DNA of 41,090 nt. It comes from a virus. Taxonomy: Duplodnaviria; Heunggongvirae; Uroviricota; Caudoviricetes. The notes under the pieces were generated by a model. The model was not told the DNA's origin, made no database searches, and saw only the letters and a program-made list of their open reading frames with translations. The DNA is taken from the IMG/VR virus record IMGVR_UViG_2563366960_000010; one strand, written 5' to 3'. The translations under genes were made by a program, and so were the position numbers. Positions 3,369 to 36,065 of the stretch are shown piece after piece; the stretch's first letter is position 1; the number at the start of each line of letters is the position of its first letter.

Positions 3369-3395
3369 CCCGCAAAATATTGCGGGCTTTTTTTT
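3369..3395 (+). terminator. Plus-strand intrinsic terminator abutting the tailspike stop codon
   Basis: Stem CCCGCA / TGCGGG with 6-nt loop followed by T8 on the plus strand; on the minus strand the hairpin is not followed by a U-run. Confidence 0.5.
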
Positions 3396-6300
3396 AACGT
3401 TCTTCCAGAGACTGAATCCGCTCTTTTATCTTATCCATTTCTCTGCGCTGCCATGCTGCCTCGATATAGAATAAGAGATCAGGTCTGACCCCCCATCTAG
3501 ATCCTGCTGGCGTTATTTCAACGCGCTCAATGATGTCTTCCATTACCATCACTGGATTATCATCCTCATCAACAATGATGCTCCCGTCATTATCAGTCAG
3601 CGGCATTTCCCTTTGGCCAGTAATGACGTCATCATATACTGCGGGATAATCGTCATAGCAAAGAAAGGCATAGCGGCATGTTGTGCTTTCTTCTTCCATG
3701 AGTCCGTGAGAAATAAGAACATCACGAAGTTGCTGCGCGATTACACCATGATGTATCCTCGCCCCTTCTTCCCCCTTTATAGCGACAGCGTTCAGCCATT
3801 TATAAGCGATATACCTGACGTCACCCCAGGCATCCAGCAATGCTTCGTCAGGAGAGACCGGCTCTGTCTTTAATGTTCCGTCACTGGTAACCACAGGATT
3901 GGAGCCAAGATAAACTGTCGAGAACCTGTTTCCCGGACCACCAAGAGCATTTACATTATCAAGATAAGGTTTAACATCTCCGTTCTCAAAAAGATGTTCG
4001 AGTGCGTTATATACCGCGCGACGTGGAGTACTGCTTCCGGAACCATGCAACGTTATCATTGCACCATCTGCTGAAGACGTTGTTTCACCGCCGCTAACGA
4101 TTAATCTCTGAGCGGTAACATCATCAGACGGTACTTTCTTCGCAATAATGGCGTAATTACCCTCAAGTTTGACTTCCGCGCGAACTTGTCCTGATGTACC
4201 TGCATGGACAGTCAGTGACTGGACGGCAACATCATCTGTGAAATCAACGGGTACAGGAACCGTCCTCACGCCTGACGTCGACATAAAAGTAGGAAGCGTT
4301 CTGTTAGGAGTGGCTCCGTAGACAAAATCCCTTGAAACAAATTCTTCCTGTTTAATTTTCACCCTGAAACAATACAAATCAGCCGGGTGACCATCGTGAA
4401 CATAAGGATATTTTCTGTTGTTATCCCCTATGCTCCATGGGTTTAGAAAGTCTTCCCCACCGAAAATGTAGTACAGCCAGTTGTCTTTGATACAAACTGA
4501 ACCAACACCAACTGCAGAGTTAACTATTCCGCCCTGATAAATCTGATCAGTAACATTAACCCACTCTACATTATCCAGACTCCACTCATTGACGTTAACT
4601 CTGGTCATAAATGTTCTTGGATAATTTCCTGCATAACGGTTATCAGGTTCTCCTCCTTCCCACTCACCAAATGCGCGCTCACTGCCAAAAATAATCAGCT
4701 CATCGCCAACTTTGGCAAAAGGAAGGTTTGAGTGATGAACATTATTTGGGAAGCGAAGAGAATTCCATGATGTACCTAAATCAGAGCTTCTGTGCAATGA
4801 ACTACCGGGTTGAGTACTTAATGTCCCCCTGGTCGTCAGATACAGAATGCCATCATAATATTTTACACATGGCTCAGATGCATTCGCCTCATATTCTGCA
4901 GGTATGCGTCTGCGAACAAAGCTACCAGGAGAACCGAAAGCATCAGAGAAATAGAGTATCCCAAGCTCGCGTGGACCAATATCACCATTATGGTAGCCAA
5001 CAGCAAAACTGTTATCGCTAATCGTCGCAAAACTGTGAATCTCAGTAACAGGAGTGCTTCCGTCAACAAAAGAAGGAATAGTTCCAAGACTGGTTTTTCT
5101 CCATGGTGACGAGTGAAATGATGTACCAAAACTCCAGTATCTACCCTCGTTATTCTGATCCACATCCTGGGTATTTTGCGTCGTAACTGTAAAAGTATTT
5201 TTATCAATAACAGTAGTCACCGTCATATTCCCGGTAACACCTGTAACACCAGAGTTTGAGAAGTTGACAAAATCACCAGCAAATAATCCGTGATCAGTAA
5301 TGCGAATATAAGCGACTTGCTGATTTGCTGCTTTCGTTATACCACCATAAGCGCGAAGGCTGCGACTCATTGGGCGATCCCACAACTCTGCAACCTGCAG
5401 TTTATTTCCGCTCACGGTCCGCGTCTCAATTACAGCAAAAAGGCGATTTCTGACAACCCCCATACTCATGCAGTGATAGTTAACTGTGGGATAGTTTTCA
5501 TGTAAATCTGTAAGCCATTCCGGCGTTGTCCAGGTCTTCCCGTCATCTCCTGAGCGAACCCATGCAACATGGAGGTTATTTACACCATGGCGGTCTCCAG
5601 CCATAAAAGGCGCATAGATGACATTGTCATATACAAACGTTTTATCCTGCGTCCAGGCGTTGTACCACGGTGTATCTGTAATTTTAAATAACTCTCCCTG
5701 GATAAAATCTTCAGAAGCATAAAAAAGAGGCTGGCCCGGTATTCTCTCAAATAAAAAACGAGCATTTTTAAATCGACTGACATCCGGAAGAGTTGATACT
5801 TTAAAAGTAAGCCCTAATCCGTCAATTTTATAACCTGGAGATGAGGCTTCAAGGCACGCGCTTATTGCAGTGGAATCGTCATTTATACCATCACCAACAG
5901 CTCCAAAATCTTTGGGGCTAATAGCATCACGCATTTTATCCTGGAACGTTCGGTACACAGCCCCAGAACCATACTGAATAAACCAACCAAAACCACCAAC
6001 AACCCCGGCGATTGCAGCATCGACATAATTACGCATTGAGCGATTATTTACAGCGTCCTGCTCAAATGATGGATCTGCAAGGTTAGAAATTTTGTTTTGC
6101 TTTGCATCGTAATATTTTGCAAGCAAAGATGGTTTCATCAATGCACGTCTGAACCACCCAAAACATTGCTGGATCAGCATCGTCAGGTAGTCAAAGGCAT
6201 CTTCATGCACTTCGGGGAAAAATTTTCCCTGATTGCGAAGGTCTGTCTCCTGCACTACATCAAGCACACGATCTATCGTAATTCGCCATCCAGTAGCAAG

Positions 6301-6513
6301 CGGAGACGGAAGAACCACAGAACCGCCACTATAAGTGCCCGCCCCAGTTACCGTATAACCGGTATCCAGAACCAATTCTGTTACGTTTCCGTTCAGGTCA
6401 GACACCTGAACAACCAGGTCTGATTTTCTGAAAATTCGAAAAGTATACGGAAACGATGTCGTAACGCCGTTACCGGTGTATTCGTTGTGGTCAACTTCGG
6501 TTGAGACCGTCAT
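3394..6513 (-). CDS. Tailspike: endosialidase with T7 gp17-like N-terminal adaptor and C-terminal intramolecular chaperone domain
   Basis: 1039 aa. N-terminus resembles T7 tail-fibre adaptor; sialidase-type FERIP motif; two Asp-boxes (SGDDGKTW, SSDLGTSW); C-terminus resembles the self-cleaving chaperone domain of K1F-type endosialidases. Confidence 0.8.
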   Translation of the reverse strand: MTVSTEVDHNEYTGNGVTTSFPYTFRIFRKSDLVVQVSDLNGNVTELVLDTGYTVTGAGTYSGGSVVLPSPLATGWRITIDRVLDVVQETDLRNQGKFFPEVHEDAFDYLTMLIQQCFGWFRRALMKPSLLAKYYDAKQNKISNLADPSFEQDAVNNRSMRNYVDAAIAGVVGGFGWFIQYGSGAVYRTFQDKMRDAISPKDFGAVGDGINDDSTAISACLEASSPGYKIDGLGLTFKVSTLPDVSRFKNARFLFERIPGQPLFYASEDFIQGELFKITDTPWYNAWTQDKTFVYDNVIYAPFMAGDRHGVNNLHVAWVRSGDDGKTWTTPEWLTDLHENYPTVNYHCMSMGVVRNRLFAVIETRTVSGNKLQVAELWDRPMSRSLRAYGGITKAANQQVAYIRITDHGLFAGDFVNFSNSGVTGVTGNMTVTTVIDKNTFTVTTQNTQDVDQNNEGRYWSFGTSFHSSPWRKTSLGTIPSFVDGSTPVTEIHSFATISDNSFAVGYHNGDIGPRELGILYFSDAFGSPGSFVRRRIPAEYEANASEPCVKYYDGILYLTTRGTLSTQPGSSLHRSSDLGTSWNSLRFPNNVHHSNLPFAKVGDELIIFGSERAFGEWEGGEPDNRYAGNYPRTFMTRVNVNEWSLDNVEWVNVTDQIYQGGIVNSAVGVGSVCIKDNWLYYIFGGEDFLNPWSIGDNNRKYPYVHDGHPADLYCFRVKIKQEEFVSRDFVYGATPNRTLPTFMSTSGVRTVPVPVDFTDDVAVQSLTVHAGTSGQVRAEVKLEGNYAIIAKKVPSDDVTAQRLIVSGGETTSSADGAMITLHGSGSSTPRRAVYNALEHLFENGDVKPYLDNVNALGGPGNRFSTVYLGSNPVVTSDGTLKTEPVSPDEALLDAWGDVRYIAYKWLNAVAIKGEEGARIHHGVIAQQLRDVLISHGLMEEESTTCRYAFLCYDDYPAVYDDVITGQREMPLTDNDGSIIVDEDDNPVMVMEDIIERVEITPAGSRWGVRPDLLFYIEAAWQRREMDKIKERIQSLEER

Positions 6514-6617: not shown

Positions 6618-6632
6618 TTACCTTTCAGGTAA
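6618..6632. promoter_or_regulatory. Operator-like 15-bp palindrome TTACCT-N3-AGGTAA
   Basis: Perfect inverted repeat TTACCTTTCAGGTAA upstream of the LexA box and the small antirepressor-like gene. Confidence 0.55.
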
Positions 6633-6669
6633 TTTGCAAAACGTGCTGGATAGCAAACAAATTATTTGA

Positions 6670-6689
6670 TACTGTATAAATATACAGTT
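6670..6689. promoter_or_regulatory. LexA (SOS) box
   Basis: TACTGTATAAATATACAGTT is a near-perfect match to the CTGT-N8-ACAG consensus, 20 nt upstream of the ATG at 6709. Confidence 0.7.
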
Positions 6690-6708
6690 ATTGCATGGAG
6701 AAGATAAG

Positions 6709-6966
6709 ATGCAGCAGTATCACTATCCACTGGAAGACGGATTTACCGAAAGGATTCACACGCCGGGAGGCGTCAGGTCACTGGTGGAGGGATCGCACTT
6801 GATGAAATTACTCCGGGATCTCGATAAGGATGGATTTAATGTCGATGGCCCACTTGCCGAACTGACTGCACTGATTAACTACGTCACCAGCTCACAGATG
6901 TCTATGCAGGATCTGCAAACACATCTCGACTATTGTGCCGAACAATTACGAAAACAAACCCGGTAA
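6709..6966 (+). CDS. Small protein homologous to the C-terminal domain of the antirepressor at 8115-8825; candidate SOS-controlled antirepressor or modulator
   Basis: 85 aa from ATG 6709 with SD GGAG. By eye about 40% identical to the last ~80 aa of the Ant ORF (shared IH.P.GV, LM.LL, DG..V.G..AEL, QTH). Confidence 0.6.
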   Translation: MQQYHYPLEDGFTERIHTPGGVRSLVEGSHLMKLLRDLDKDGFNVDGPLAELTALINYVTSSQMSMQDLQTHLDYCAEQLRKQTR

Positions 6967-6988
6967 ATTTAAAGGCCGCAAGAGCGGC

Positions 6989-7717
6989 CTATCGTTTCGC
7001 TTTGTGCTCGTCCCAGCACGTTTTGCACCATGCCATTAAGCCGTCCGCATTTTGATTATTAGGGTAAAAGCTGGTCCGTTTTCTGCGGACATTACAAATT
7101 GGGCACCACTTCATATGGCGTGTATTCTTTGGGCCATCGAGACACCTTGCACACCACTTAGTCAATCCATCTGGATTTTTTGACGATTTCCGGAATTTGT
7201 CATATGGAAGGTTTATTCTGCATCGCAAACACTGCTTGCGGCCACTTGAAACTCTGTTAGCTGATTCTTCTTTTGGCGGCGATACAGAAGGTATTCTTGC
7301 TGGCTCTGATACTGCCTGAGGTGCTTTTTTAGATGACTGAGACGATATGTCATCACCAGGGAATCTTCCATGATATGCCGGACGCATTGATACTCCAGGT
7401 GGAAGCTCAGCTGTAAACGGCTTTGGCTGAATCAGTTGCCTCTCTTTTGCTAACTCCTGCTGTTTACAATATGTCTGGATTACCGCACTATCATAAGCAG
7501 GAGGTGCGGAAATATTAGGCGCATTACCTCCAGTTTTTTGAAACTGAGTAGAGGTGTGTTCTATCACCTGTGTACGATTAATCGTTATCTCCCCATCTTC
7601 GGTCTTTATCGTTTTGTTATGATTAACGACCGTACGATCAGAGATCTTAGTCTTGTTCTGGTTGATAACGTAAATAATCACCGCAACCACACCAACAACT
7701 ATCCAGAAAACTTCCAT
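6989..7717 (-). CDS. Membrane-anchored protein with tandem CxxC zinc-ribbon repeats; candidate superinfection-exclusion factor
   Basis: 242 aa; N-terminal TM helix, Pro/Ser-rich linker, C-terminal twofold repeat C-x2-C ... DGL..WC-x2-C; SD GAGGA upstream; operator palindrome just upstream. Confidence 0.55.
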   Translation of the reverse strand: MEVFWIVVGVVAVIIYVINQNKTKISDRTVVNHNKTIKTEDGEITINRTQVIEHTSTQFQKTGGNAPNISAPPAYDSAVIQTYCKQQELAKERQLIQPKPFTAELPPGVSMRPAYHGRFPGDDISSQSSKKAPQAVSEPARIPSVSPPKEESANRVSSGRKQCLRCRINLPYDKFRKSSKNPDGLTKWCARCLDGPKNTRHMKWCPICNVRRKRTSFYPNNQNADGLMAWCKTCWDEHKAKR

Positions 7718-7737: not shown

Positions 7738-7752
7738 TTACCTTAAAGGTAA
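7738..7752. promoter_or_regulatory. Operator-like palindrome TTACCTTAAAGGTAA
   Basis: Perfect 15-bp inverted repeat 21 nt upstream of the minus-strand start at 7717. Confidence 0.55.
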
Positions 7753-7830: not shown

Positions 7831-7845
7831 TTACCTTTGCGGTAA
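7831..7845. promoter_or_regulatory. Operator-like palindrome TTACCTTTGCGGTAA (one mismatch)
   Basis: Near-perfect copy preceded by candidate -35/-10 elements (TTGATT ... TATCAT); upstream of the structured leader before ant. Confidence 0.5.
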
Positions 7846-7935
7846 ATTTACATCGCACTCCTCTTGTGCCATAGTAATCGGGCACTGGCAAAATCCAGTG
7901 CCGGGATTGGCGTCCCGGGTTACTAAGTGGCGCAT

Positions 7936-7959
7936 ACCACGCCAGACGTGGTTTTTTTA
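7936..7959 (+). terminator. Intrinsic terminator inside the leader upstream of the antirepressor gene
   Basis: Stem ACCACG / CGTGGT with 5-nt loop followed by T7; preceded by a strong hairpin GGCACTGG / CCAGTGCC at 7881-7902. Confidence 0.6.
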
Positions 7960-8114
7960 TGCGTTAAGCACAGCTATATCCGAATTATGGTGGGCTGGGC
8001 AGGGGTCCGAAAGGACGCCGGTACCACTTAGGCCGGTACGCCAACCTTGTCCAGTTCACCACCAGTAATTGGCGTTGCGGTGGTGATTAAAATCACTAAG
8101 TGGAGATAACCACC

Positions 8115-8825
8115 ATGGCTAATGCTCAAACTTCCATCTTCAAATTTGAATCTGTTAACCCTATCCGTTCCATCATTATCGATGGCCAACCATGGTTTGT
8201 AGCCCAAGACGTTTGTAGTGCGCTGCGTATCCAAAACGTCACCCAAGCACTTGAAAAACTGGATGATGATGAAAGGTCTATGTTCAACATAGGGCATGAA
8301 CATCGTGCAATTTTTGACAGCCGAGTAAAAGAGATCAACATCATCTCCGAGTCAGGCCTCTACACACTGATCCTCCGCTGCCGCGACGCAGTGACACCAG
8401 GCACTATCCCCTACCGCTTTCGTAAATGGGTTACGGGTGAGGTTCTTCCTCAGATCCGCCGCACCGGAAGCTACATTAAAAACTCGCTCCCGCAGGAAGA
8501 ACGCATAAAGATGGTTGCCGACCAGGTGGCCAACGCCACGGCGTCAGCAGTAATGCAGGCGATGAAGATAGAGAACAAAACCTACAGCGCCCCACTGAAT
8601 CCCGGCTACCGCAGCCTGATTCATTCGCCGTCTGGTGTTCTCGGCCTGACGGAGAACTCACTGCTGATGAATCTGCTGAACCAGTTACAGGACGACGGGC
8701 ACGACGTATCGGGCGCGGCGGCGGAGCTGACCACCATGTTCTGCTACATCGTCGGTGTGAGCAAATGCCTGCGTGATATCCAGACCCACGCGGAATACAT
8801 CAACGACAAGGCAGGGTTCTTCTGA
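8115..8825 (+). CDS. ant: Antirepressor, Bro-N/KilA-N family N-terminal domain
   Basis: 236 aa from ATG 8115 with SD GGAG; N-terminal Bro-N pattern (IFKFE...IRSIIIDGQPWFVAQDV); C-terminal domain paralogous to the 85-aa ORF. Confidence 0.75.
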   Translation: MANAQTSIFKFESVNPIRSIIIDGQPWFVAQDVCSALRIQNVTQALEKLDDDERSMFNIGHEHRAIFDSRVKEINIISESGLYTLILRCRDAVTPGTIPYRFRKWVTGEVLPQIRRTGSYIKNSLPQEERIKMVADQVANATASAVMQAMKIENKTYSAPLNPGYRSLIHSPSGVLGLTENSLLMNLLNQLQDDGHDVSGAAAELTTMFCYIVGVSKCLRDIQTHAEYINDKAGFF

Positions 8826-8897: not shown

Positions 8898-8912
8898 TTA
8901 CCTTAAAGGTAA
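8898..8912. promoter_or_regulatory. Operator-like palindrome TTACCTTAAAGGTAA abutting the SD of the 55-aa gene
   Basis: Perfect copy immediately followed by AGGAGG and ATG 8925. Confidence 0.55.
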
Positions 8913-8924
8913 AGGAGGCGCGAT

Positions 8925-9092
8925 ATGACAGCGTTGAAAAATCGTACTCAGCACAATGAACAAGCCAAGCAATGCTGGGATGTCATTGGAAAAGTTATGC
9001 TTGGCCGCGCAAGCAAAGAGCGCGACAAGGATATGGTTTACCAGACAGGAACATCTTTCAGCGACTTCAAGGCGGCATTTCGCTCCAAATAG
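8925..9092 (+). CDS. Small basic protein (55 aa), first gene of an accessory two-gene cassette
   Basis: ATG with perfect SD AGGAGG at 6-nt spacing; below the 60-aa cutoff of the ORF track; no family recognised. Confidence 0.5.
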   Translation: MTALKNRTQHNEQAKQCWDVIGKVMLGRASKERDKDMVYQTGTSFSDFKAAFRSK

Positions 9093-9112
9093 AAGCACAT
9101 CAGGAGTTTTCC

Positions 9113-9553
9113 TTGAAGTTTAACATTAGAATATCTAATAGTTTTCTACATGGGGAAAGCAACACCCCTTTCGCTGTAGACGGACCTTTCCTTACTGATG
9201 ATGAAATAAAAATCATACAAAGTTTTTTAGAGGATGTTGCCAATGGAAGGGCGCTTGTTGGAAAAAACAAGCCCTCGTGGGTTGATGATAACCATGATAA
9301 AATTCCCGGCTCAGACAATTATGAGCAAGAGAATTATTGGCATTATCATTGTGGGCCAACATGGTATCCAAACACATTTAAGAATTATACCATTAACTTA
9401 AATTTCAACCCTGGCGGAAGGCATTCTAATGAATGCATTCATTATGCAAAAAATGATAATGAAATTGTCATTGTTGGATTTTCAAGAGAACACATACCTT
9501 TCCTTTCATCAGATGGAAACAACAATCCGCTTTTTAATGATGAAGAAGAATAG
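9113..9553 (+). CDS. Hypothetical 146-aa protein in AT-rich cargo region
   Basis: TTG start with SD CAGGAG 6 nt upstream; region markedly AT-rich versus neighbours; Asn/Asp-rich, acidic tail; terminator follows directly. Confidence 0.5.
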   Translation: MKFNIRISNSFLHGESNTPFAVDGPFLTDDEIKIIQSFLEDVANGRALVGKNKPSWVDDNHDKIPGSDNYEQENYWHYHCGPTWYPNTFKNYTINLNFNPGGRHSNECIHYAKNDNEIVIVGFSREHIPFLSSDGNNNPLFNDEEE

Positions 9554-9576
9554 CCCGCGCTGCGGGCTTTTTTGTG
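9554..9576 (+). terminator. Intrinsic terminator after the AT-rich cassette
   Basis: Stem GCCCGC / GCGGGC followed by TTTTTTG immediately after the stop at 9553. Confidence 0.7.
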
Positions 9577-22041: not shown

Positions 22042-22092
22042 CTTCTTTCTCCATTAGTGGGTCTGTTACGACCCACAGGTTAATAACAGGCG

Positions 22093-26412: not shown

Positions 26413-26489
26413 GTGGCATTAGCTCAGTTGGACAGAGCAACCGCCTTCTAAGCGGTTGGTCGCAGGTTCGAATCCTGCATGCCACGCCA
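26413..26489 (+). tRNA. tRNA-Arg (anticodon UCU), phage-encoded, argU-like
   Basis: 77-nt cloverleaf folded by hand: acceptor GTGGCAT/ATGCCAC, T-arm GCAGG-TTCGAAT-CCTGC, anticodon loop CTTCTAA, discriminator G, encoded CCA; core resembles E. coli argU but stems differ. Confidence 0.85.
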
Positions 26490-35056: not shown

Positions 35057-35119
35057 TCACCCATAAGGTAACAAAAATCAAGGATAGTTACCTATGAGGT
35101 GCATTTACCTGTTGGGTAA
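35057..35119. promoter_or_regulatory. Immunity-region operator cluster (three sites) between divergent cro-like and repressor genes
   Basis: TCACCCATAAGGTAA (35057-35071), TTACCTATGAGGTGC (35088-35102), TTACCTGTTGGGTAA (35105-35119); degenerate versions of the 15-bp palindrome. Confidence 0.6.
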
Positions 35120-35174: not shown

Positions 35175-35759
35175 ATGAAAAGTATCCAGGACGTCCGCAG
35201 GCAAAATCTCAACGACTTGATCGACCGTGAATTCAATGGTGTTCAGACGCGGATGGCAGAAAAACTTGGAACTCAGGCAAATCTGGTAAACCGCTGGGCT
35301 CTTGGCAAGAAGGTTATCGGCGACCAGGTTGCACGAAAAATTGAAGCTGCCGCCAATAAACCCCGTAACTGGCTTGATATTGATCGTTCGCTTTCTCAGG
35401 AGGGTTTTCAGCCTGTCGGCCCGAGCGATATAGGTCAGCTGGCGGCTCACAACCTGGAACGCTGGATGAGCGAAAGCCGCGACCTTTCAACACAGGGAAA
35501 ACTTCACCGCGCATCCGGCGTCGCCCAGGTGACAATCAGCCGCCTGTTAAACAATGAGGTCAGCGTTTCCATTTCCACCCTGGAGAATGTTGCATCCGCA
35601 TTCGGGCGTCACGGATATGAACTACTGATTCACCCGCACGACCCTGCGACTATCAACTATGACCGCTCACGCTACGCATTGTTACCCGAAACCGAGAAAG
35701 CAAAGATCGAAAGTTACATTGAATTTGTCATCAACCAGAACGAAAAAAGCAAACAATAA
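35175..35759 (+). CDS. Prophage repressor candidate with tandem XRE-type HTH domains and no S24 peptidase domain
   Basis: 194 aa; two HTH-like segments; no Ser-Lys autocleavage domain recognisable; divergent from the cro-like gene. Confidence 0.6.
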   Translation: MKSIQDVRRQNLNDLIDREFNGVQTRMAEKLGTQANLVNRWALGKKVIGDQVARKIEAAANKPRNWLDIDRSLSQEGFQPVGPSDIGQLAAHNLERWMSESRDLSTQGKLHRASGVAQVTISRLLNNEVSVSISTLENVASAFGRHGYELLIHPHDPATINYDRSRYALLPETEKAKIESYIEFVINQNEKSKQ

Positions 35760-35816: not shown

Positions 35817-35831
35817 TTACCTTACGGGTAA
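35817..35831. promoter_or_regulatory. Operator-like palindrome TTACCTTACGGGTAA (one mismatch) at the early-left promoter
   Basis: Lies just upstream of TTGACA (35851-35856); GGTAAC half-site repeats at 35888-35907 follow. Confidence 0.5.
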
Positions 35832-35912
35832 TTTTTTTAACTCATATCTATTGACACCAAACCAAATAAGCATAATTATTACCCCAACGGTAACAGACCG
35901 AGGTAACAAGTT

Positions 35913-36065
35913 ATGCAGTGGAAAATCATCAACGGTTGGTACTGCGTTACTGCATGCGGATTCATGAGCTGGAAGTTCCGCACCTTACAGGAAGGCATTA
36001 AGTGGGCTTTCGTCAGCAAAGAAGCTCGCGATGTAGCCAACGATAACGAGATATGGGAGGGCTGA
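35913..36065 (+). CDS. Small Trp/Cys-containing protein (50 aa), first gene of the early-left operon
   Basis: ATG with SD GAGGTAA; below ORF-track cutoff; function unknown. Confidence 0.4.
   Translation: MQWKIINGWYCVTACGFMSWKFRTLQEGIKWAFVSKEARDVANDNEIWEG

Follow-up and report, generated by a model that had tools for sequence, protein, structure and literature searches.

The locus described here lies in IMG/VR virus record IMGVR_UViG_2563366960_000010, a caudovirus sequence of 41,090 nucleotides (nt) that we call, at its full length, the window. It centers on ant, a gene for a small stand-alone antirepressor of 85 amino acids (aa) at 6709-6966 on the + strand (ATG at 6709, stop codon ending at 6966, Shine-Dalgarno (SD) sequence GGAG at 6697-6700), which is preceded by a LexA (SOS) box at 6670-6689. 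The window phage is an epsilon15/phiV10-like temperate podophage of Escherichia coli, genus Uetakevirus. DNA identity across the region is 91-97% to the E. coli phages TL-2011b, HEMP4, vB_EcoP_ZX5, phiv142-3 and phiV10 and about 77% to Salmonella epsilon15-like phages, all of them temperate podophages of the same genus. The ant gene sits between the tailspike gene, from which it diverges, and a gene for an 824-aa virion/injection-type protein. The order tailspike (-), ant (+), ..., small membrane protein (-), 824-aa protein (-) is identical in the window and in phage SPC32H, with about 2.9 kb of accessory genes inserted in the window between ant and the small membrane-protein gene. These accessory genes include a second antirepressor gene, which encodes a 236-aa Bro-N::Ant-like fusion (8115-8825, + strand) behind two small structured RNAs, and the repressor gene rep lies far downstream (35175-35759, + strand). 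Very probably, the LexA box and ant form a DNA-damage switch of the SPC32H type, in which LexA-repressed Ant would inactivate a non-cleavable Rep.

The assignment of the two proteins is based on their similarity to those of SPC32H. A phmmer search of the PDB sequences with Ant returned a single match, chain E of 5D50 ('Anti-repressor protein'; E-value 4.1e-47, residues 2-84 against 3-85), and tblastn gave 88% identity to the annotated ant product of phages SPC32H and SPC32N. Judged by this similarity, the 85-aa protein is the ortholog of SPC32H Ant. Its PHROG matches were confined to phrog_450 (E-value 9e-48; labelled 'unknown function' in PHROGs), the fragment family phrog_15539 and the C-terminal part of phrog_1760, and no Pfam or NCBIfam model covered the Ant domain in the profile searches. 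The 194-aa Rep carries two helix-turn-helix (HTH) modules and is a homolog of SPC32H Rep: phmmer matched its residues 1-190 to 5D50_A and 5D4Z_A, both named 'Repressor' (E-value 3.5e-42), at a global identity to SPC32H Rep of 42%. A Pfam scan of Rep found HTH_3/HTH_26 only and no Peptidase_S24, which bears out the initial annotation's remark that the repressor candidate has no S24 autocleavage domain. Homologs of Ant were found in 35 phage records and homologs of Rep in 36, the two lists overlap almost completely, and ant is conserved across the genus.

The LexA box, TACTGTATAAATATACAGTT, agrees with the 20-mer consensus TACTGTATATATATACAGTA in 18 of its 20 positions, with both half-sites (CTGT/ACAG) perfect and a spacer made entirely of A/T, and it ends 19 nt before the ant ATG. 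The SOS-box match that had been noticed upstream of the 85-aa gene thus stands. It is the sole site within three mismatches of the consensus in the 41-kb window, and none of 100 dinucleotide-preserving shuffles contained such a site. The looser pattern CTGT-N8-ACAG occurs three times in the window against 0.58 expected; the two other occurrences, at 22063 and 26605, were rejected as LexA sites on account of their G+C-rich spacers and more than three mismatches to the 20-mer. When the tailspike-ant intergenic regions are aligned, the window box and the SPC32H box TACTGTATGTTTATACAGTG occupy identical columns, and we therefore regard the window box as orthologous to the SPC32H ant operator; the SPC32H box has three mismatches to the consensus and the window box two. 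SPC32N differs from SPC32H at two positions in 1449 nt, one of which is a C-to-A change in a box half-site (ACAG to AAAG). In the 2013 work of Kim and Ryu, a single change in the LexA site is reported to make Ant constitutive and the phage virulent. The box also stands 18-19 nt before the ant ATG in TL-2011b, phiV10, epsilon15, Tyrion and BUCT554 (2-4 mismatches to the 20-mer) and at the same distance in Klebsiella relatives, there with one core change (ATGT for CTGT), so that the spacing is kept in phages of four host genera, namely E. coli, Salmonella, Enterobacter and the Klebsiella relatives.

A candidate ant promoter spans 6651-6680 on the + strand (-35 TAGCAA at 6651-6656, an 18-nt spacer and -10 TATAAA at 6675-6680), and SPC32H has TAGTCA/18/TATGTT in the same register. 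The predicted -10 falls inside the LexA box, so the box would overlap the promoter. Two other candidates, TTGCAA at 6634-6639 with a -10 element 17 nt downstream and TTGATA at 6666-6671 with TATTGC, were set aside for a poor -10 or an element that is not conserved in SPC32H. Past the stop codon of ant lies a G+C-rich hairpin (6973-6990), which the convergent 242-aa gene shares; the terminator scan places the hairpin on the - strand (6990-6973), and its T-run on the + strand is weak.

We then considered a second class of candidate regulatory sites, the palindrome TTACC-N5-GGTAA (often ATTACC...GGTAAT), of which the window holds 13 against 0.55 expected. These 15-nt sites start at 6618, 7738, 7831, 8898, 26076, 29181, 29199, 32756, 32818, 35057, 35105, 35817 and 35879, and those that were compared with the map of open reading frames (ORFs) are intergenic and stand in front of genes (on both sides of rep and upstream of ant, the isrK/C4 cassette and a 193-aa ORF). 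One pair (35057-35071, with one mismatch, and 35105-35119) lies between rep and a divergent 76-aa gene, and another (35817-35831 and 35879-35893) lies in the gap that separates rep from the early operon beginning at 35913. The SPC32H genome has 10 such palindromes. They are probably Rep operators in a P1-like multi-operator regime, in which case both antirepressor genes would also be controlled by Rep. The probable operator nearest to ant, TTACCTTTCAGGTAA at 6618-6632, is about 90 nt upstream of the ATG; a palindrome at -89 to -91 from the ant ATG is kept in SPC32H, epsilon15, Tyrion, BUCT554 and the Klebsiella phages, and in the GenBank record of epsilon15 the palindrome that precedes gp19 (ant) is labelled a repressor binding site. 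Two more, TTACCTTAAAGGTAA at 7738-7752 and TTACCTTTGCGGTAA at 7831-7845, are found upstream of the RNA/Bro-N cassette, and the second of these ends 1 nt before the -35 element of the predicted isrK promoter.

The conserved palindrome lends itself to an explanation of ant control without the SOS response: the LexA box could be a chance or vestigial match, with ant repressed by Rep through the upstream palindrome or expressed constitutively. The degraded left half-site of the Klebsiella relatives, ATGT instead of CTGT, would fit this as well. We consider it extremely unlikely in view of the 18/20 match, its absence from all shuffled sequences and the constant distance between box and ATG in four host genera; moreover, the half-site change of SPC32N coincides with a reported loss of lysogenic control, and the palindrome center is about 60 nt upstream of the predicted transcription start, clear of the promoter core.

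The SPC32H-type switch would operate as follows. In the lysogen, host LexA bound to the box at 6670-6689, which overlaps the candidate -10, would silence ant; upon DNA damage LexA would cleave itself and Ant would be made; and Ant would then bind Rep, which lacks an autocleavage domain, and free it from its operators, so that the lytic genes would be expressed. In SPC32H, where Ant starts the lytic cycle, the protein is described as a tetramer that engages two Rep dimers and disrupts the Rep tetramer that binds DNA (PMC9638917), and a review that cites Kim and Ryu 2013, Shearwin 1998 and Lemire 2011 describes antirepressors that are made after LexA self-cleavage and inhibit the repressor of lytic functions via protein-protein interaction (PMC7380047). 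The close homology to this experimentally characterized system is what supports an SOS-controlled antirepressor in the window phage. The proposal of the initial annotation that an SOS-controlled antirepressor acts on a non-cleavable repressor is thus supported by the homology of Ant and Rep, by synteny and by the position of the box in the SPC32H operator columns. LexA binding, Ant-Rep binding and a need for ant in induction are all expected by homology.

Several points weigh against this interpretation. The candidate ant promoter is weak, with 8 of 12 matches, below the 9/12 threshold of the consensus promoter scan. Ant is 88% identical to its SPC32H counterpart but Rep only 42%, and conservation of the Ant-Rep interface is assumed. 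The Rep-operator-like palindrome upstream of ant suggests that LexA may not be the sole control of the gene. Details of the SPC32H system were taken from GenBank and PDB annotations and secondary citations, and the switch in the window phage itself is predicted from sequence.

The 236-aa product of the second antirepressor gene combines a Bro-N domain (PF02498, residues 17-112, E-value 9.6e-20) with an Ant-like domain at residues ~155-231 (nt 8577-8807), and the protein matches phrog_130, 'anti-repressor Ant' (E-value 3e-56). Residues 155-231 match 5D50_E (E-value 3e-13) and phrog_450 (E-value 5e-36), the same PHROG as Ant itself. In a BLASTP pairwise alignment, residues 2-75 of Ant correspond to residues 155-228 of the fusion with 31 of 74 positions identical (42%), no gaps and an E-value of 2e-15, which agrees with the roughly 40% identity that had been estimated by eye. 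That estimate had been read from the side of the Bro-N protein, taken as the full-length antirepressor, with the 85-aa protein as its C-terminal domain that would be either the repressor-binding effector or a modulator of the larger protein. The first option is supported and the second is not needed. The polarity is in fact the reverse: the small Ant, which occurs in all 35 phage records with an Ant match, is the core component and the effector, not a derivative of a 'full-length' antirepressor, and the Bro-N fusion is an accessory gene.

Modulation would mean that the 85-aa protein acts on the Bro-N antirepressor rather than on Rep, for example through mixed oligomers formed by the shared domain, and such oligomers are conceivable given that both proteins carry the homologous domain and that SPC32H Ant is a tetramer. 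However, SPC32H, epsilon15, BUCT554 and BUCT711 have ant and rep and lack the Bro-N fusion, so Ant works without it; PDB entry 5D50 holds an 'Anti-repressor protein' chain together with 'Repressor' chains, that is, a direct Ant-Rep complex; and the phiV10 match to the fusion gene is split into two pieces, annotated as two separate coding sequences, with ant intact. Modulation of the Bro-N protein by Ant is accordingly very unlikely.

Searched exhaustively with a profile of the Ant domain, 1.84 billion representative proteins yielded only 65 clusters at E-value <= 1e-3. A word-index homolog search with Ant had found close stand-alone orthologs only and missed the fusions, which the exhaustive profile search recovered. 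The family comprises two subfamilies: Ant1, the stand-alone proteins of 85-86 aa, and Ant2, the C-termini of the fusions together with stand-alone proteins of 95 aa. The two are about 40% identical, and 13 columns of the alignment are invariant across both. The domain is fused to Bro-N, AntA, Phage_pRha or ORF6N, all of them N-terminal modules commonly seen in modular phage 'antirepressors'. One stand-alone member of 84 aa (P0138) is of Ant1 type in its N-terminal half and of Ant2 type in its C-terminal half and looks, by its sequence, like an Ant1/Ant2 recombinant. Four Klebsiella chromosomes (L006-L009) encode a stand-alone 95-aa Ant2-type protein, at 4001-4288 of the loci, beside an AlpA-like gene and a HicA/HicB pair; the CTGT-N8-ACAG box was found in none of these four islands, C4 and isrK were absent from the two loci scanned with Rfam (L006 and L007), and the islands are probably remnants of a degraded element.

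What the fusion acts on was approached through its distribution and divergence. Full-length Bro-N::Ant fusions were found in only 18 phage records, each of which also has Ant and Rep matches. The identity of the C-terminal domain to that of the window follows the identity of Rep (98% vs 99% for Rep in TL-2011b, 78% vs 78% in Tyrion, 54% vs 45% in the Klebsiella phages), and that of the Bro-N half does not (69% in TL-2011b, 66% in Tyrion, 56-58% in the Klebsiella phages, all against the window). In the close relative ZX5, overexpression of the Bro-N protein ORF4 reduced lysogens from 1e9 to 1e6 plaque-forming units (PFU) per mL and lowered repressor transcripts by 75% (PMC9782041). Compared with the window, ZX5 is 100% identical in Ant, 99.5% in Rep and 81% in the Bro-N protein. 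The co-occurrence with Rep, the parallel divergence and the overexpression result together point to Rep as the target of the fusion, and on balance we lean slightly toward the Bro-N protein being an additional antirepressor of this Rep that answers to a different input. Weighing against this, the target is deduced only from co-occurrence, four identity comparisons and one overexpression study in a relative.

Another target for the Ant-like domain of the fusion, such as the Rep of a co-resident or superinfecting relative, or a role restricted to oligomerization, is compatible with the low identity between Ant1 and Ant2, with the fusion of the domain to four different N-terminal domains and the presence of stand-alone 95-aa forms in non-phage islands, and with the cross-talk of antirepressors between prophages that is documented for the Gifsy phages (PMC7380047). 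It is nevertheless rather unlikely, since full-length fusions are confined to phage records that carry the Rep family, the divergence of the C-terminal domain tracks that of Rep, and the ZX5 protein cut the lysogeny of ZX5 itself, whose Rep is nearly the same as that of the window.

The region upstream of the fusion gene points to a mode of control distinct from that of ant. A promoter-like site at 7847-7875 on the + strand (TTTACA, a 17-nt spacer and CATAGT, with an extended TG; a consensus match only) stands just upstream of an isrK-family small RNA (sRNA) at 7882-7958 (+ strand; Rfam RF01394, full length, 67.7 bits vs a gathering score of 50), which includes an intrinsic terminator hairpin with a U-run. 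This is followed by a C4-family antisense RNA at 7983-8066 (+ strand; Rfam RF01695, full length, 66 bits vs 45). The exposed loops of C4 read CCACUUAG (8024-8031) and ACGCCAA (8038-8044), and each is complementary to two target copies: CCACUUAG to CUAAGUGG in IsrK (7923-7930) and again in the leader of the Bro-N gene (8096-8103), and ACGCCAA to UUGGCGU at 7907-7913 in IsrK and 8069-8075 in the leader. The leader segment with the downstream targets spans 8069-8103 (+ strand), and its CUAAGUGG copy overlaps the SD sequence GGAG of the Bro-N gene (8102-8105). No ORF of at least 20 aa opens with ATG between C4 and the start of the Bro-N gene; only a 34-aa GTG ORF and a 20-aa TTG ORF are present there, and no convincing equivalent of icd or orf45 was found.

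The same pair of RNAs precedes the fusion in TL-2011b, phiV10, Tyrion, Kp4865-1 and ST11-OXA245phi3.2; the fusion gene sits on an isrK/C4 cassette in all six phages examined, and the pair is absent from phages without the fusion gene. We compared the stretches from isrK to the Bro-N SD sequence (window 7882-8105; L001, which is TL-2011b, 4458-4691; L002 3643-3876; L010 2838-3073; L013 4062-4298; L015 2839-3070). The window pairs the C4 loop CCACUUAG with CUAAGUGG in both IsrK and the leader, and TL-2011b and phiV10 pair the loop CCUUUUAG with CUAAAAGG in both places. Tyrion and Kp4865-1 have the loop CCUUUGUAG and the targets CUACAAAGG, the IsrK copy of Tyrion with one mismatch. The second C4 loop of Tyrion is AGACCAA, with UUGGUCU in both IsrK and leader, and that of Kp4865-1 is GUCUCAA, with UUGAGAC in both. 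Compensatory three-way changes of C4 loop, IsrK and leader are seen in TL-2011b/phiV10, Tyrion, Kp4865-1 and ST11-OXA245phi3.2. Because isrK and C4 lie upstream, the loops are complementary to the leader and the elements covary across cassettes, the Bro-N gene is predicted to be under antisense-RNA control, not LexA control. The variation of the C4 loops suggests distinct immI-type specificities among phages whose Rep proteins are more than 99% identical.

In addition, we characterized the genes that surround the two antirepressors. The tailspike gene (3394-6513, - strand) encodes 1039 aa, of which only the first ~200 residues, the N-terminal head-binding part, are common to relatives such as phiV10, SPC32H and PAS61; DNA matches to relatives end about 590 nt into the query, a pattern that indicates the usual swapping of receptor-binding domains. 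Between ant and the RNA cassette lies a 242-aa ORF (6989-7717, - strand) whose product has a hydrophobic helix in its N-terminal part and Cys-rich repeats in its C-terminal part. Its full-length match is to phrog_6762 (unknown function), and it weakly resembles Stc1, endonuclease VII and zinc-finger regions of the Lar-like type. SPC32H, phiV10 and Tyrion lack the ORF at this position, TL-2011b has it only as a misc_feature 'similar to hypothetical protein', and it is probably a moron. Downstream of the fusion gene, a 193-aa ORF (8972-9553, + strand) matches phrog_5954 (unknown function) from residue 49 on and no Pfam family; its true start may be internal. It is flanked by an operator-like palindrome upstream (8898-8912) and by a strong bidirectional terminator downstream (9552-9568). 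Elsewhere in the window, a tRNA gene at 26413-26486 (+ strand; Rfam 73.3 bits; anticodon loop CUUCUAA) is probably a tRNA-Arg UCU, and SPC32H has an annotated tRNA-Arg between its terminase and portal genes. TL-2011b has an Rfam match to sar RNA, the P22 immI antisense RNA (L001 7508-7575; 44.8 bits vs a gathering score of 43), downstream of its window-homologous region; no sar match was found in the window itself.

The whole arrangement is present in 101 of 5,426 complete E. coli genomes, and at least part of the 2.2-kb query region in 534 of the 5,426. In the listed complete genomes, the genes under the match other than the Bro-N gene, ant included, are annotated as 'hypothetical protein'. 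Recognizing ant therein predicts that common E. coli prophages, including relatives found in O157 and O103 strains, would be SOS-inducible via LexA and not via repressor cleavage. It also exposes an annotation gap, in that a structurally solved protein has yet no Pfam-A or NCBIfam model and its PHROG carries no function.

The LexA/ant mechanism is already known, having been published for SPC32H together with a crystal structure, and the window adds its E. coli-phage ortholog. The only, and mildly, novel part is that one phage carries two Ant-domain proteins under different control circuits. We tentatively propose, as a possibility that falls just short of even, that the SPC32H Ant fold is a portable Rep-targeting module, present here in two copies that receive different inputs and converge on the same non-cleavable Rep. 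Stand-alone Ant under LexA would report host DNA damage, and Bro-N::Ant, governed by a P1-like C4/IsrK circuit whose loop sequences are phage-specific and probably also by Rep operators, would signal superinfection or the state of immunity. If this is true, Bro-N, AntA, Rha and ORF6N would be interchangeable 'delivery' domains, and the C-terminal halves of many Bro-N/AntA/Rha 'antirepressors' would be the determinants of repressor specificity. The fusion behind a covarying IsrK/C4 cassette would then exemplify how antirepressors are assembled from a repressor-binding module and exchangeable control and N-terminal modules.

Among characterized systems, the closest is the Rep/Ant/LexA switch of SPC32H (PDB 5D4Z and 5D50), which like the window phage belongs to the Uetakeviruses. 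Shared features are the Ant ortholog, a homologous Rep that has two HTH modules and lacks an S24 domain, the gene order from the tailspike to the 824-aa gene, the LexA box 19 nt before the ATG and an ATTACC-N5-GGTAAT palindrome at the same place upstream of ant. The window differs in its E. coli host, in the lower conservation of Rep, in a box nearer to the consensus and in the extra genes that hold the isrK/C4/Bro-N::Ant-like cassette, which is missing in SPC32H. The SPC32H switch was reported by Kim and Ryu (2013, J Virol 87:11775) and by Kim et al. (2016, PNAS 113:E2480), and the LexA box and ant of the window fit the SPC32H Ant family in all features accessible in silico. The 186 Tum and Gifsy/Fels-2 antirepressors, of which Tum and the Gifsy type had been offered as the model for the window, are alike in logic, as a small LexA-repressed antirepressor inactivates a non-cleavable repressor, but they are functional analogues only. 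Ant has no significant Pfam or NCBIfam match to the Tum or Gifsy families, a result based on profiles with no pairwise comparison to Tum, and membership of Ant in the Tum/Gifsy (GfoA) family was rejected for want of profile support.

For the IsrK part of the cassette, the nearest experimental analogue is isrK-orf45-anrP of Gifsy-1, where a terminated IsrK sRNA likewise lies directly upstream of an antirepressor-like gene and transcripts that run past the IsrK terminator carry the antirepressor mRNA in a translationally silent form (Hershko-Shalev et al. 2016, PMC4825925). Unlike Gifsy-1, the window has no convincing equivalent of orf45, the upstream ORF on which anrP translation depends, and the downstream output of Gifsy-1 is the antiterminator AntQ. 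In ZX5, overexpression of ORF4 similarly shifts a close relative to lysis (Li et al. 2022, PMC9782041); there the Bro-N protein counts as the sole antirepressor and SPC32H is not mentioned, and the GenBank record of ZX5 annotates the small ant gene as 'hypothetical protein'.

The C4 part resembles immI of P1 and P7 (c4 - icd - ant), where a C4-family RNA also lies just upstream of the antirepressor gene, two C4 loops pair with an upstream set of targets and with a downstream set that covers the ribosome-binding site (the a1b1 / a'b' / a2b2 layout), and loop specificity differs between the related phages P1 and P7 as it does among the window-type cassettes. Unlike immI, the window has no icd-like ORF, and its upstream targets are inside a separately terminated IsrK sRNA. 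Finally, gp30 of N15 ('anti-repressor Ant') is 44% identical to the N-terminal ~150 residues of the fusion; the match ends at residue ~151, and gp30 is without the SPC32H Ant domain that the fusion carries. N15 reportedly has RNA-controlled AntA/AntB (CA RNA - icd - antA/antB) plus a separate AntC under SOS/LexA control. N15 is thus a precedent for the two-circuit logic, and the repressor-binding domain shared by both antirepressors is the new feature in the window.

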